Origin: Eubacteriales bacterium
Lineage (GTDB): Bacteria > Bacillota > Clostridia > Oscillospirales > CAG-272
Assembly (NCBI GenBank): GCA_045656745.1
Contig: JAZORT010000028.1
Location: 8,862 to 72,861, forward strand
Direction: 5' to 3'
DNA: 64,000 bases
The translations under genes were made by a program, and so were the position numbers. This document shows, piece after piece, positions 3,414 through 43,931 of this stretch. The notes beneath the pieces were generated by a model. That model had not been told where the DNA came from, made no database searches, and worked only from the letters and a program-made list of their open reading frames with translations. Numbering within the stretch: the first letter of the stretch is position 1; every line of letters starts with the position of its first letter.

Positions 3414-5480
3414 ATGTGTGAAAAAGAACATTCCGTAAAATTGCTTAATGCCAAAGATTTTGGAGCATCCGGTTCTACATTCGAAGCGGTGGCAACTACT
3501 GTTTCGGGAAGGCGTAGAATAGACGTTGATAACATAGGTGATTTTTCCGTGGGTGATGAGGTGATTCTCAACAACGGATATTCTCACCACGTTTGCGAAA
3601 TGTTTATGGACAGACGCGATACTTCACCGATAAATCCAAGACCGTGGCAGCACGGAGCTCTTCTTAATGGCAGAGTTGAAATGCGCGGAACGCCCTCCGA
3701 TGAGTGGGTGGCCTATTTTATAGACCTTTACCCGGAAGAGCCTAATGTTTTTCGCTGGACCAAAGATTACGGCAGAACCTGGCACGAGAGCATTCCCATT
3801 ACCGAGGGCTGGATAGATCTTGACGGTGACGTTGAGGTCAAAATAGGAAGCTTTGCGGAGAGGGAGTGGGGATGCACGGCTATAATCGTTTGTTCTACTA
3901 GGCTTGTTGCTACAATAGAACGCATCGATGGAAATTCGCTTTATCTGTCAAAGGAAGCAAATCTTGATTCCAAGTGCGTTATTCGCCATTCCGATACAGC
4001 GGCAATTCAAAGAGCGATTGATGCGGCAATCAAAGAAAACAAGGGGGTATTTCTCCCTAACGGAAGATACCGCCTGACCTCTTCGCTTGTTATAAAGGAT
4101 GCGGAAGGATTTACGTTTGAGGGTGAGAGCGGAGTAAACACTATACTCGACAACTCCCTCGGCGCTGTAGGAGCCGAAACCTACGTCGGCTCTTGCTTGT
4201 ACGTAGAACGAGGAAAAGAGGTTAATATAAAGAATCTCTTTATGGTAGGTTGCGCAGGCTTCGAAGAGCGCGATCAATGCACAAATCTTCGTCCGAGAGG
4301 CGGAGATAGTGTCTGGGGCTTCTATTTTCATAAATCCAACGCAACCTGCGTGATCGATACCGAGAGAGTCTACATTGAAAATTGTCACGCAAGACGTATG
4401 TCCGGCGAATGCTTTTACGCAGTAGGTCAAAGACGTACTCCTCCCGATCCCGATCCGGAGTTTTACACGAAAAGCATAACTTATATGCGCTGTTCGGTAG
4501 AAGATTGCGCCAGAAACGCATTTAATACCGCTATACAGTCGGAACGCACTTCTCTGCTTTATTGCAGAATAAAAGACGTTGGCGGATGCGCCTGGGAGGG
4601 ATCGTCAAGATTTACTAATATCGAGGGCTGTTATTTCAGAAACGCCGGCTCGATAGGAATCGGAAACTCCAGAAGACGTAATATATTCCACGAATATCTT
4701 ACCTGCGGTCAGCATCATATTTCCGGCAACTTTTTCGAAAGCGGGTGTTCCTACAGCAAAGCTATGATAAGAGTTGGAGCAGCCGCAGCTCAGGTTATTA
4801 TTACAGGCAATAGCTTCATCAACTTTAATTCAGACGCAATTCATTCATTCGGCGAAGGCGGTGTAGTTGATCTTCCGTCCGAGAACGTCATAATATCGTC
4901 GAATGCTTTTGATATGACTGCAACAGAAAATGAGTCAGAGTCTCGCTGTGCAATAAGAATAACGAACAATTTCGTAACCGTATCGGATAACCAGATATAC
5001 GTAAGAGGCGAATGTGATAAAAACGTTAACGGAATTGAAATATCCGACGACGTAACAAGACTTCAGATACACGATAACACTATTGCAGGCTGCGGCAAAG
5101 CAATCGTTTCTGAAAAGGTTATCGGAAAGGTCGGAAGAGTGGCAGACGAAAAAACGTTTTACCGTGAGGAAGGCCGCCAAGGCGACGAAACCAAGCCGAT
5201 GCTTCTCCGCCGCAGATCTCATCTTTACCGCGGATGGACGCTTGAGTGGCTTAAGGACGGCTCAAAGTCGAAAATTGATTTCTTTGATGCCGAAAAGCTC
5301 ACCTTTAATCTTAAAGAGCCTAAAACAATCGAGGTTGGCGATGAATTTATGATCTACTCCGACGTAAGCGCTCCTTGGAATATTCACGATAACATTATAG
5401 ATGATTGTGAAACTCCTCTTGCTCTTGATACAGAGGCAGGAAAATGTGCCGTACTTAGGAACAACATAATACATAACTAA
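3414..5480 (+). CDS. right-handed parallel beta-helix protein (pectate-lyase superfamily-like), no signal peptide
   Basis: Start moved to the ATG at 3414, which follows TAGGGAGAG. Motifs LNAKDFGASGS and AIQRAIDAAIKENKGVFLPNGRYRLTSSLVI are typical of pectate_lyase_3-type N termini. The remainder is repetitive and rich in G, N, I and V, like beta-helix coils. Confidence 0.7.
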   Translation: MCEKEHSVKLLNAKDFGASGSTFEAVATTVSGRRRIDVDNIGDFSVGDEVILNNGYSHHVCEMFMDRRDTSPINPRPWQHGALLNGRVEMRGTPSDEWVAYFIDLYPEEPNVFRWTKDYGRTWHESIPITEGWIDLDGDVEVKIGSFAEREWGCTAIIVCSTRLVATIERIDGNSLYLSKEANLDSKCVIRHSDTAAIQRAIDAAIKENKGVFLPNGRYRLTSSLVIKDAEGFTFEGESGVNTILDNSLGAVGAETYVGSCLYVERGKEVNIKNLFMVGCAGFEERDQCTNLRPRGGDSVWGFYFHKSNATCVIDTERVYIENCHARRMSGECFYAVGQRRTPPDPDPEFYTKSITYMRCSVEDCARNAFNTAIQSERTSLLYCRIKDVGGCAWEGSSRFTNIEGCYFRNAGSIGIGNSRRRNIFHEYLTCGQHHISGNFFESGCSYSKAMIRVGAAAAQVIITGNSFINFNSDAIHSFGEGGVVDLPSENVIISSNAFDMTATENESESRCAIRITNNFVTVSDNQIYVRGECDKNVNGIEISDDVTRLQIHDNTIAGCGKAIVSEKVIGKVGRVADEKTFYREEGRQGDETKPMLLRRRSHLYRGWTLEWLKDGSKSKIDFFDAEKLTFNLKEPKTIEVGDEFMIYSDVSAPWNIHDNIIDDCETPLALDTEAGKCAVLRNNIIHN

Positions 5481-5484
5481 AAAA

Positions 5485-5525
5485 GGGGCTGTCTCAAATT
5501 TTGCATTTGAGACAGTCCCTTTTCA
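5485..5525. terminator. bidirectional terminator between convergent genes
   Basis: A 15-bp stem ggggctgtctcaaat / atttgagacagtccc (one mismatch) with loop tttgc. It is flanked by an A run upstream and a T run downstream. Confidence 0.6.
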
Positions 5526-5527
5526 TA

Positions 5528-6457
5528 TTAAAAAACAACTGCGGGAAGAACTACCGAAAGAATGGCGAATACAGTGGCGATAATAGTGTATCTGTTGAGT
5601 TTTTCCCCTATAATCGGAGTTGCGACGGCAACAGCCGCAAAGGCAAATGCGGAAGAGAGCGGAGTATATATCGAAACGTCCATCATACCAAGCAAAAGCA
5701 ACTGAACAACAGAGTTAATGTTTGAGTTTAACGTGGTAACCGCTGAGTAAATTGTTTTTTTGCTCTTTACCATTTTCCATAAATCGGAAGGCTTGATTTT
5801 ATCTCGCTTCATAGTAAACGGAAGAACGGGCAGAACTAAAAATGCACTGAATATATTCGTAATAAAGAAGAACGAATTCTGGTCAGTAACATTCGTGTCA
5901 GCAGAGTAGTACTTTAAAACCGCCGTACTCGCAGCGCCAATAAGAGACATAAAAGCAAGTGTTGATAAAACAATTATGAGCTTTTTTCTTTTTTCAGTTT
6001 TGCTTTCGTTTTCAGCTTCAGTTTTAGCTTTGTTGCTATTCCTGCCAATAAACATAACCGCAGTAGCACAAAGCATCATCACCACTCTTAACAATTTCTC
6101 GACAGTGACGACTTCACTAAAAAGAAACATTCCCATCAGTAGTGAAAGGATTAAGCTCATACTACCTGAAACAAAGCTTATAAAAGCAAAGGAAGCATAA
6201 TTGTATACGAATACCGACGGTATGAGAGAAATGATAACTATAATACCGTATATCAATCCGTAAAGTACTACAGTCCAGTTGAATTCAAGATTAAATCCGT
6301 TTAACGCCCAAAAATAAAATAGTGCAAACAAGCTTGTTTCAAACACATAGAATAAAGAACCCGTAATACCGTTCACCGAAAAAGCGGTGCTGTTCTTTTT
6401 TCTCATTACGTCGCTTAATATTCTAGATAAGAAATGTATTCCAAATAGTATGTACAT
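5528..6457 (-). CDS. polytopic membrane protein, DMT/EamA-like transporter (about 10 TM)
   Basis: Start placed at MYILFGIHF (6457), which follows GGAGAA. Hydrophobic segments run throughout, with a central charged loop (KAKTEAENESKTEKRKK) separating two 5-TM halves as in the DMT superfamily. Confidence 0.65.
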   Translation of the reverse strand: MYILFGIHFLSRILSDVMRKKNSTAFSVNGITGSLFYVFETSLFALFYFWALNGFNLEFNWTVVLYGLIYGIIVIISLIPSVFVYNYASFAFISFVSGSMSLILSLLMGMFLFSEVVTVEKLLRVVMMLCATAVMFIGRNSNKAKTEAENESKTEKRKKLIIVLSTLAFMSLIGAASTAVLKYYSADTNVTDQNSFFFITNIFSAFLVLPVLPFTMKRDKIKPSDLWKMVKSKKTIYSAVTTLNSNINSVVQLLLLGMMDVSIYTPLSSAFAFAAVAVATPIIGEKLNRYTIIATVFAILSVVLPAVVF

Positions 6458-6683
6458 CAGTAGTTCTCCATAAGTTTTTTTACATAACACTTGAGAGTTT
6501 TGCCTACAATAATTTTAGCACAAACAAAGAAAAAATGTAAACAACTAAAACTAATACAAATACTTAAAATTTTAAGAATTGTTTTTCTTCTAGGTTTATT
6601 CATTCTTGATCTATAATCTTTTGAACATTCGACCCTTAGCGTTTATTCTTTGTTTTCAGTGGTAAAAAATTGTTGTTAATGAC

Positions 6684-6725
6684 AGAATCCCGAAGAGCGA
6701 TCTCCGGGATTCTTTTGAGGTTTTA
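6684..6725 (+). terminator. orphan terminator-like hairpin in a long non-coding region
   Basis: Stem agaatcccg (6684-6692) pairs with cgggattct (6705-6713), followed by tttgaggtttt. There is no plus-strand CDS upstream. Confidence 0.3.
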
Positions 6726-6789
6726 AAAATAACACGCATAAAAAAATTACTTAACTTTTTGAGTATGAAGAGTTAAAATATATGTGGAG

Positions 6790-6818
6790 TTGAATCTTCT
6801 TTCGAGTTTTGGTAAAAT
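6790..6818 (+). promoter_or_regulatory. candidate extended -10 promoter with no CDS downstream
   Basis: TTGAAT (6790-6795), 17-nt spacer ending in TGg, then TAAAAT (6813-6818). Confidence 0.4.
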
Positions 6819-6825
6819 CGGCTTG

Positions 6826-7252
6826 ACCACATTTTTGACCATTTACAGAATTTTTCTGTGTGGCAACGGACGGACGTATTGGTCAAAAATGTGAAAAATT
6901 GCGGAATATACGGTTTATTTTAGAGCAGATTTGCTTATTTTGCATTTTAGAATGTCTTTGGGAGCACGATGTCAAAGGTAGCGTAGCGGCGCGAGGTGTT
7001 AGAAAACAACTAAGTGTTGTTTTCCCCGAGCGTGACCGAGCCCGCAGGCGAGAGTCAAATCCTGTCATTTCGACCAAAAAAGAGAAATTAGCCCTTGTGG
7101 TTATTTTCTCTTTTTTTACTTTGATGTGCCTGTTCGAAGCTGTTTTGCAAAGCGAAAGCAGGTTCGCATACCGCTTGCGGTATCTGCGTAGCATACCCTG
7201 TCATTCCGACCATCAATAGACGTTTGTCAAACAGTGTCAAACGTCTTTTTTA
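6826..7252 (+). ncRNA. candidate non-coding transcription unit (about 430 nt), family unknown
   Basis: Bounded by the promoter at 6790-6818 and the hairpin plus T6 terminator at 7219-7251. The only ORF (6860..7219) starts at GTG without an SD and is Cys/Arg-rich junk. Internal helices: cacatttttgacca (6829-6842) pairs with tggtcaaaaatgtg (6880-6893); aaaacaac pairs with gttgtttt; aaaaaagagaaa pairs with tttctctttttt. Confidence 0.3.
7219..7251 (+). terminator. intrinsic terminator (plus orientation) overlapping the AraC stop codon
   Basis: Stem gacgtttg (7219-7226) pairs with caaacgtc (7238-7245), followed by tttttt (7246-7251). In the reverse orientation no T run follows the hairpin. Confidence 0.5.
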
Positions 7253-8047
7253 TTTCATGTCAAATAGGGATCTCCTTATATCCAAAGCTGTTTTTCCCAA
7301 ATGGTATTTAAGGAATTTGTTAAAGAGCTCGACGGTGGGAAAGCCGAGGCTTTTGCCGATTTCTTCTATACTGCGCTCTTCTTTTCGGAGCATCGAGCTT
7401 GCTTGGGAGGCTCTTAGGCTGTCGATATATTCCTTTGCGGTCATGGCGCAGGATTTTTTTACAATTCGGCTCAGGTGATCCTTTGTGCAACCAAGCACCG
7501 AGGCTATTTCACAGACCAAAAGAGGCTCTGCGGAGTGTTCCTTACAATACTTACAAAAGCTGTCGAAGAGCCTTTCGGATTTATCGTATTTTTTCGAGCA
7601 AAGAAGTCCAAAAAGCAAATCGAGCAGTATGACCTCGCACCTTTCAACCGGGGCGCCTGAGACAAATTTTTCGTAAACTCTTACGAAATTCAGATCTTCA
7701 CCGCTCTCGGGAAAAAGAAGATTAATCCGCGACTCGGAGTCAAGGAATACCTCGGGCAGGCAGGAAAAGTCTATTTTATAGACCGCGCTTTTTTCTTTTG
7801 CGGTTATTTTTCTGCAAACATCGGCGCTTACTATTGCGCCATAACCGCGGTGCACTGTTGCACACTCTCCGCTAAGCTCGATTTCAATACTGCCGTCGGC
7901 AACGAAGATAAGAGACGTGTCGGAGGTAAAGCTCTCACGCAGGGGGGATTTATTATCTAAGGTATAGTATTCGCATTTTTTCAGGCTAAGCGAGGTGAAG
8001 CTTTTATTTCTGTGATAGGCGCCGTCTTCAAAGCAAAATTTTATCAA
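7250..8047 (-). CDS. AraC family transcriptional regulator
   Basis: C-terminal HTH: SVLGCTKDHLSRIVKKSCAMTAKEYIDSLRASQASSMLRKEERSIEEIGKSLGFPTVELFNKFLKYHLGKT. It is divergent from the GH32 gene. Confidence 0.85.
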   Translation of the reverse strand: MIKFCFEDGAYHRNKSFTSLSLKKCEYYTLDNKSPLRESFTSDTSLIFVADGSIEIELSGECATVHRGYGAIVSADVCRKITAKEKSAVYKIDFSCLPEVFLDSESRINLLFPESGEDLNFVRVYEKFVSGAPVERCEVILLDLLFGLLCSKKYDKSERLFDSFCKYCKEHSAEPLLVCEIASVLGCTKDHLSRIVKKSCAMTAKEYIDSLRASQASSMLRKEERSIEEIGKSLGFPTVELFNKFLKYHLGKTALDIRRSLFDMK

Positions 8048-43586: not shown

Positions 43587-43618
43587 AGTCTTTGTGCATA
43601 ACAAAAAATCCCACACTC

Positions 43619-43692
43619 TGTGCGTGAGGTGGTCGATCCACGGCTTCGCCAAAACAAAAGGATGCCACAAGGGCATCTTTTATACGGGTGGG
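43619..43692. repeat. copy 1 of a duplicated roughly 65-75-nt element (hairpins, terminator, short tRNA-Val 3' fragment)
   Basis: tgtgcgtgaggtggtcgatccacggcttcgccaaaacaaaaggatgccacaagggcatctttt, followed by atacgggtggg. It is nearly identical to 43786-43871. Confidence 0.7.
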
Positions 43693-43785
43693 TTTTGCCG
43701 CTTTGCGTCAATATTTCTGCGTTCACCGCTGAAAAGCAAGCTTTTCGACGGTTTTACTTGAAATGCGAACCACATTCACGCACTT

Positions 43786-43871
43786 TGTGCGTGAGGTGGT
43801 CGATCCACGGCTTCGCCAAAAACAAAAGGATGCCACAAGGGCATCCTTTTGTTTTGGTGGAAACGGGTGGG
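43786..43871. repeat. copy 2 of the duplicated element, abutting and overlapping the 3' end of tRNA-Val
   Basis: tgtgcgtgaggtggtcgatccacggcttcgccaaaaacaaaaggatgccacaagggcatcctttt, followed by gttttggtggaaacgggtggg. The hairpin ggatgcc/ggcatcc with flanking A and T runs serves as the tRNA terminator. Confidence 0.7.
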
Positions 43872-43931
43872 CTCGAACCACTGACCCCCTGCATGTCAAG
43901 CAGGTACTCTGACCAACTGAGCTACGCTTCC
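43855..43931 (-). tRNA. tRNA-Val (anticodon GAC), CCA encoded
   Basis: Hand-folded cloverleaf: acceptor GGAAGCG/CGTTTCC; D arm GCTC-AGTTGGTCA-GAGT; anticodon arm CCTGC-TTGACAT-GCAGG; variable GGGTC; T arm AGTGG-TTCGAGC-CCACC; then A-CCA. Confidence 0.85.

Follow-up and report, generated by a model that had tools for sequence, protein, structure and literature searches.

The question raised by this locus is what fills an odd gap in the window, that is, in the whole stretch of 64,000 nucleotides analysed here. The ORF-free gap spans positions 6458–7249; with the ATG at 6457 as the start of the EamA-like gene, its length is about 790 nt. The genes around it (EamA-like, pectate-lyase-like, AraC-type, GH32 and PfkB) are syntenic in relatives. 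Its borders are as follows.

5528 to 6457, minus strand: EamA-like gene, left border of the gap
7250 to 8047, minus strand: AraC-type gene, right border of the gap

The first-pass annotation placed here a single candidate non-coding RNA of about 430 nt, with a promoter, several helices and a terminator, and all the features that it listed are present within 1–2 nt of the positions given there. It found no likeness to RNase P, tmRNA, SRP, 6S RNA or riboswitches, and an Rfam scan agrees: no family is matched at the gathering score or at E ≤ 10, the best of the chance-level scores being 23 bits to a miRNA model with a gathering score of 70. Its checks did not include tRNA signatures. Both parts of the region, units X and B, are derived from tRNA-Pro(UGG), and the proposal of an RNA of unknown kind falls accordingly. 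The segment from 6823 to 7252 is probably the decayed remnant of a tRNA-Pro(UGG) operon.

CCTGTCATTYCGACC is found twice in the gap, at 7061 and 7197, with 0.17 occurrences expected. Both copies end in ACCA followed by a plus-strand terminator hairpin, and the repeat represents the 3' T stem and 3' acceptor strand of a tRNA, with its discriminator and CCA. A BLAST search of the window with the tRNA-Pro(UGG) gene of the related contig L007 gives three colinear matches (E = 5e-5, 8e-4 and 3e-3). Positions 31–48 of the tRNA match 6956–6973 exactly (18 nt, 100%, E = 5e-5), positions 58–76 match 7058–7076 (19 nt, 95%), and positions 61–76 match 7197–7212 (100%). With the tRNA-Pro gene of L010 as the query, the first match lengthens to 6956–6979 (24 nt, 87.5%), and 7055–7082 is matched over 28 nt (93%), including the first bases past the CCA. 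Unit X is made of the following parts.

About 6823 to 7076, plus strand: unit X, a tRNA-Pro copy from a promoter-like site to the CCA
6902 to 6955, plus strand: 5' part of X, in which CGGAATATA resembles the tRNA-Pro 5' acceptor strand and U8/A9 (CGGGATGTA)
6956 to 6979, plus strand: tRNA-Pro(UGG) positions 31–54, with the anticodon loop, 3' anticodon stem, variable loop and 5' T stem
6980 to 7054, plus strand: T-loop insert of X (insert 2), 75 nt, with a hairpin at 7002–7024
7055 to 7076, plus strand: tRNA-Pro positions 55–76, with the T loop, 3' T stem, 3' acceptor strand, discriminator A and CCA

A degenerate stretch after CGGAATATA replaces the D arm and the 5' anticodon stem. In the alignment, a GCGC/GCGC D stem is missing from the window, as is a CGTGC that could pair with GCACG at 6964–6968, so that the anticodon stem is incomplete. 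The 5' T stem reads AAAGG, not GCAGG. Aligning the window with contigs L058 and L059 shows that insert 2 cleanly separates GGT from TCRAATCC in all three. X can thus be read as a copy of tRNA-Pro without a D arm or 5' anticodon stem and with 75 nt inserted in its T loop. ARAGORN detects no tRNA in the gap, the sole tRNA of the window being tRNA-Val at 43855–43931, and the Rfam tRNA model (RF00005) has no match in 6400–7350 even at E ≤ 10; the same tools detected intact tRNA-Pro in L007, L010 and L059. As with tRNA fragments and pseudogenes, there is significant identity to a tRNA together with an intact counterpart at the same locus in relatives.

X is followed by a terminator, a second tRNA-Pro remnant and a second terminator.

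7076 to 7122, plus strand: terminator A, composed of A6, an 18-bp imperfect stem (hairpin 7076–7116) and T7; −17.0 kcal/mol
7119 to 7212, plus strand: unit B, a second tRNA-Pro remnant, with the T arm and acceptor and a T-loop insert of its own
7158 to 7166, plus strand: GCAGGTTCG (5' T stem and TTCG), the start of the interrupted T arm of B
7197 to 7212, plus strand: CCTGTCATTCCGACCA, the second tRNA-Pro 3' end, in B
7215 to 7252, plus strand: terminator B, hairpin GACGTTTGTCA...TGTCAAACGTC followed by T6; −12.5 kcal/mol, with the U tract on the plus strand only

The A/G-rich hairpin near 7076–7116, previously taken for an internal helix of one RNA, is present and belongs to terminator A. Since this is a full intrinsic terminator, the region is cut into the two units X and B, and the single transcription unit of about 430 nt is split. 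The plus-oriented hairpin with T6 described near 7219–7251 is terminator B, and the AraC stop codon (7250–7252, minus strand) falls within its T tract. A simple terminator scan missed both terminators because the stem of A is too G-C-poor and the loop of hairpin B is too long. The insert of B is 30 nt long, follows GCAGGTTCG and contains the hairpin ATACCG/CGGTAT. The hairpin of terminator A is the one that follows intact tRNA-Pro in L059 and in several homologues of a spurious ORF of the gap (motif TKKEK..VVFSF), and the hairpin of terminator B lies directly 3' of intact tRNA-Pro in L007 and L010. Unit B is kept in L006 (98%) and, downstream of tRNA-Pro, in L059.

Units X and B recur in several contigs. 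L007, whose AraC DNA is 99.1% identical to that of the window, has an intact tRNA-Pro(UGG) gene at this spot; terminator B comes next, as far from AraC as it is in the window. In L059 (NCBI GCA_054280675.1), the order is promoter, X, intact tRNA-Pro, terminator, unit B and another terminator. The promoter is a strong TTGACA-17-TATAAT. X of L059 is formed by CGGGATGTAGCGCAGTTG followed by about 110 nt in the D loop, GCGCGCGTGCTTTGGGAGCACGATGTCGCAGGT followed by about 75 nt in the T loop, and TCGAATCCTGTCATTC-GAC; these three tRNA pieces match the neighbouring tRNA-Pro except for one deleted C. The intact tRNA-Pro lies 14 nt past X, and the terminator after it is nearly identical to terminator A. 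In L010 (a Eubacteriales MAG, 5145–5669), a 21-nt 5' fragment of tRNA-Pro lies 203 nt upstream of the intact gene, the order being tRNA-Lys, 5' tRNA-Pro fragment with an insert, intact tRNA-Pro, terminator B and tandem units. The two tandem units are 124 nt long, are 94% alike and each end in the degenerate tRNA 3' end ACATTCCGAC; L007 and L058 have one such unit each, which in L058 comes after X and a terminator-B-like hairpin. Insert 1 of L010 and insert 2 of the window have short stretches in common (GCGAGAGTCA, AGCGTAGCG), at chance level. Searching metagenomes for the tRNA-3'-end/terminator pattern or the U-unit pattern gave 0 matches.

These arrangements lead to a plausible history of the gap. 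In related Eubacteriales, the locus consists of a promoter, X, an intact tRNA-Pro, terminator A, unit B and a terminator, with X itself a copy of tRNA-Pro that D-loop and T-loop inserts interrupt; this is likely to be the parental arrangement. The window would then be an L059-like operon from which the working tRNA has been deleted, leaving X joined straight to the tRNA 3' end (TCAAATCCTGTCATTTCGACCA) and terminator A. The junction may have arisen by recombination between the 3' piece of X, about 20 nt long, and the identical 3' end of the neighbouring tRNA, a deletion step that we infer from two arrangements only. The promoter and the two terminators would be inherited signals of the tRNA operon, and transcription of the plus strand therefore probably persists. 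One predicted transcript of about 220–300 nt would end at 7122; a second, perhaps a read-through product or a separate RNA of about 130 nt, would end at 7252. Neither predicted RNA would be able to work as a tRNA.

The varied ways in which the tRNA parts are broken from one genome to the next agree with a relic. On the other hand, X (6823–7078) of the window shares 93% identity with L058 in spite of unrelated flanks on both sides, and the identity is unevenly spread. The non-tRNA insert 2 is the best-kept part (75/76, 98.7%), the rest of X being about 89% identical; the tRNA-derived pieces are at 91–92%, 6902–6955 at 92.5% and the leader 6860–6902 at 79%. A neutral relic would not predict the best conservation in insert 2. 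Therefore, there is the possibility that X has been co-opted as a tRNA-derived sRNA. The conserved T-loop insert is the sole part of the region left without an explanation, the rest being mostly debris of the tRNA-Pro operon. The earlier view of a non-coding region with plus-strand promoter-like and terminator signals thus stands, and the region is kept as a unit in at least one unrelated contig; the idea that it encodes a new RNA does not. For annotation, what looked like a new large non-coding RNA is a false lead, and the odd 790-nt gap is accounted for as tRNA-operon debris.

The promoter-like sites and helices of the region are as follows.

6790 to 6818, plus strand: extended −10 promoter-like site TTGAAT-17-TGgTAAAAT, found by pattern scan, not conserved in L058
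6823 to 6851, plus strand: promoter-like site TTGACC-17-CAGAAT, found by pattern scan, kept in L058
6828 to 6841 and 6880 to 6893, no strand assigned: perfect 14-bp inverted repeat CACATTTTTGACCA ... TGGTCAAAAATGTG; −26.2 kcal/mol
7002 to 7024, plus strand: 9-bp hairpin inside the T-loop insert of X; −9.9 kcal/mol

The site at 6790–6818, put forward as the promoter, is present in the window but is not conserved in L058, the closest homologue. The block conserved with L058 begins at 6823, and 6823–6859 is identical at 35 of 37 positions (94.6%). The region contains 6 promoter-like matches compared with 2.5 ± 1.5 in shuffled sequences, a mild enrichment. The similarity of the promoter and leader of the window to the strong L059 promoter is not significant, 227 of 300 shuffles having scored as well. 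The proposed 14-bp helix is likewise present as a perfect inverted repeat but is not conserved in L058, where mismatches without compensating changes occupy four of its six outer positions. The left arm of the repeat overlaps the site kept in L058 at 6823–6851; if transcription starts from that site, near 6858, the left arm is therefore not in the RNA. A MITE was considered for the inverted repeat and for insert 2 and was rejected, neither sequence recurring elsewhere in the window or in 470 kb of fetched loci. The small hairpin reported near 7003–7023 is confirmed at 7002–7024.

The plus strand of 6820–7255 folds better than shuffled sequences (z = −5.0), with z = −3.6 for the minus strand, a signal that the palindrome and the terminators produce. 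Taken alone, the X cores of the window (6903–7078) and of L058 fold no better than shuffles (z = −0.44 and −0.82, respectively). The first-pass annotation had named covariation as a check on its RNA. RNAalifold on three sequences each finds no compensatory change in the 37 predicted pairs of X and one in the 29 pairs of B, and the RNA fold of the region is without covariation support.

The locus differs greatly among close relatives. Strains in which the AraC gene is 97–99% identical have four different sequences at this spot. L006 shares terminator A, unit B and terminator B with the window (97.7%), and its DNA to the left of 7076 is different. L008 and L009 have a MatE gene 32 nt past AraC and no tRNA remnant; their AraC protein is 262 aa long compared with 265 aa, with a different 3' end of the gene (L008 5100–5170, L009 2574–2640), and the strain breakpoint therefore lies within the end of the AraC gene. 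From the other side, the similarity of L011 to the window ends at about 6618 and a GFO_IDH_MocA gene adjoins its EamA-like gene, the product of which is 96% identical; that of L013 ends at about 6672, with other genes beyond. More distant AraC relatives (46–49% identical) have yet another neighbour. To judge from these comparisons, the locus is a recombination hot spot, at which near-identical strains differ in having an intact tRNA-Pro, a deleted tRNA-Pro or other genes. Exact look-ups of the GH32, AraC and EamA-like proteins of the window returned no record, and a scan of a genome collection with the AraC protein found no relatives.

The alternative that takes up the conserved insert is that X and B are working sRNAs evolved from tRNA-Pro copies, with a conserved hairpin module in the T loop of a tRNA-like scaffold. 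Such RNAs would use the tRNA operon promoter and end at the tRNA terminator, and their acceptor-like end might be trimmed by tRNA-processing enzymes. The contrast between insert 2 and the tRNA pieces and leader is consistent with this, as are the conservation of unit B between the window and L059 and the persistence of insert 2, with changes, in L059 and about 8 other contigs, where it stands beside differing tRNA-like parts; its translation motif GSVAARGVRKQLSVVFPERDRARRRE is what recurs in these further contigs. The stems of paralogous inserts differ in sequence with their pairing kept (AACAAC/GTTGTT, AATAAC/GTTATT and AACGAT/ATCGTT), the acceptor pair G3-T70 of the window is G3-C70 in L058, and X of L059 folds well (z = −5.2). 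However, double compensatory changes are as scarce as RNAalifold indicates for both units, the window and L058 versions fold no better than shuffles, and which tRNA-like parts are broken varies between genomes. Moreover, the homologues were collected by a protein search, which favours the conserved stretch. A single sampling project supplied many of the contigs, which may be closely related or gene-converted paralogues, and the loci have no shared neighbour gene that could point to a partner protein. Working sRNAs are possible on this balance, at a low probability.

A bolder form of the same idea is that X and B represent an undescribed tRNA-Pro-derived RNA family of uncultured gut or rumen Eubacteriales, in which the T loop carries a conserved hairpin module of about 75 nt and the D loop a second one, co-transcribed with tRNA-Pro as a natural "tRNA-scaffolded" sRNA or a new bacterial tRNA intervening sequence. 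This is unlikely. If true, a tRNA copy with conserved inserts in both elbow loops, carried beside a working tRNA-Pro, would be a new bacterial route to build or carry sRNAs.

Several known systems resemble the arrangement in part. In archaea, tRNA genes have introns at non-canonical positions, the D loop and the T loop included. X of L059 is similar in that tRNA-Pro is split cleanly in these two loops into pieces matching an intact gene, but the host is bacterial and no bulge-helix-bulge pairing can be read at the junctions. For the 75-nt insert, no intron family is matched and no junction complementarity can be read, and the exons are defective in every copy seen; with a damaged acceptor end of X in L059 and missing 5' parts in the window, no functional tRNA could result. 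In enterobacteria, the 3' external transcribed spacers of tRNA operons act as sRNA sponges. The candidate here would similarly be a non-tRNA RNA that uses the promoter and terminator of a tRNA operon, but those sRNAs are spacers cut out by RNase E and not tRNA-like copies. The tmRNA and YrlA/Y-RNA-like RNAs share with X an acceptor-like pairing, a T arm and an encoded ACCA end around a large non-tRNA insert; they differ in that ARAGORN and Rfam give no match here and that the T loop itself is interrupted in the window. Neither a tmRNA tag reading frame nor a Ro-binding stem was identified in the region. The relic reading resembles the partial and disrupted tRNA genes described for prokaryotes (PMC9897764), which also have tRNA-identical stretches unable to form a cloverleaf, a strain-variable tRNA locus and direct repeats of the tRNA 3' end. 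The window differs from those fragments in that no mobile element or integrase lies between the copies, which are 120–136 nt apart, that every copy has its own terminator, and that X has all the tRNA parts in order, broken by conserved D-loop and T-loop inserts.

The tRNA pieces might also be attachment-site scars, left by elements that were inserted by integrases targeting the anticodon loop, T loop or 3' end of tRNA-Pro and later deleted; the "inserts" would be remains of element ends, left behind together with incomplete copies of the tRNA and terminators of foreign origin. Breaks are seen at the anticodon loop at 6956, in the T loop at 6979/7055 and 7166/7197 and, in L007, at the 3' acceptor strand, and these three are the classic places of integrase crossover. 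The locus is hypervariable between strains, and 7055–7076 has the T-loop variant TCAAAT together with T70, unlike the strain's own type as seen in L007. Partial tRNA genes produced by element integration are common and well documented (PMC9897764). Against such an origin, the window has no gene for an integrase or another mobile-element protein close to the gap, nor is one apparent on those short parts of L007, L010, L058 and L059 that were read. The repeats are only 120–136 nt apart, and no partial and complete tRNA copies flank an integrase element, the copies being 136 nt apart. The inserts are clean, about 30–110 nt long and conserved, and not element-sized. BLAST of 6480–7260 against phage and plasmid collections gave zero matches, and scans of viral contigs with the palindrome and both ends of insert 2 gave nothing but one chance match in high-GC coding DNA. 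In IMG/VR, the 22-nt tRNA-Pro 3' end TCRAATCCTGTCATTYCGACCA occurs in 43 viral contigs (L015–L057), nearly always as part of a complete tRNA-Pro(UGG) in phage arrays of 10–25 tRNA genes and not as an att fragment, L023 being the only one without a detectable tRNA; these matches are therefore uninformative on att sites. Attachment-site scars are an improbable origin of the pieces, and the decayed tRNA-Pro operon is the preferred reading.

Two ORFs overlap the region.

6860 to 7219, plus strand: 119-aa ORF, spurious and non-coding
6883 to 7194, minus strand: 103-aa ORF, spurious and non-coding

That either of them encodes a small protein is very improbable: the 119-aa ORF has 11 matches among 1.84 billion representative proteins (best E = 3e-32), but these read through tRNA sequence and terminators, its frame is shifted by indels in L059 and P0042, the differences between the window and L058 fall 4/6/8 over the codon positions, Pfam gives no match for the gap ORFs, and a search for homologues of the minus-strand ORF returned zero. 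The 11 matches are unnamed ORFs on short contigs that run through tRNA-Pro and the terminators (motif LWEHDVAGSNPVIPTKKEK and similar), several of them carrying the T-loop insert of X, and they are translations of homologous non-coding DNA with frame-breaking indels. A protein-coding gene was thus rejected, and the gap is non-coding, as the first-pass annotation had held from the lack of a credible CDS; the conserved small protein that it had named as evidence against its RNA was not found. The protein search with the 119-aa ORF was still useful because homologous DNA came to light through it.

At the left end of the gap, a further hairpin lies just within the strain-variable segment.

6684 to 6720, plus strand: orphan intrinsic-terminator-like hairpin AGAATCCCGAAGA/TCTCCGGGATTCT followed by TTTTGAGGTTTT; −16.9 kcal/mol

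It has no plus-strand gene upstream and stands directly past a conserved block upstream of the EamA-like gene. This block (6531–6672) is kept in relatives with an EamA-like protein down to 73% identity and contains …AAAAATGTAAACAA…AAAATTTTAAGAATTG… with a minus-strand promoter TTTACA-18-TGxTAAAAT. It is found twice in L013 (2487–2620 and 900–1046), the second copy before an unrelated 35-aa ORF, and it may be a shared promoter/operator block. Also in L013, the reverse strand of 2000–2460, between the GFO_IDH_MocA and EamA-like genes, has a strong TTGACA-17-TATAAT promoter followed by about 450 nt without a called gene, at the end of which stand A/T-rich terminator hairpins. Its sequence is unrelated to the gap of the window, and it is possibly another non-coding unit.

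Positions 1–17 of contig L058 are CGACGCTCTTCCGATCT, which we take to be an Illumina adapter tail; the first bases of that contig would then be contamination. A locus similar to the tRNA-Pro gap is found elsewhere in the window, at the tRNA-Val(GAC) gene (43600–43931, minus strand), where a partial 3' end and a terminator are duplicated. The tRNA is followed by a terminator, GTGGTTCG (5' T stem and TTCG), about 80 nt, CCCACCCGT (3' T stem and acceptor start) and then second copies both of the terminator and of the 32-nt stretch GGCGAAGCCGTGGATCGACCACCTCACGCACA. Duplications of a partial tRNA 3' end together with its terminator may be general in this genome.
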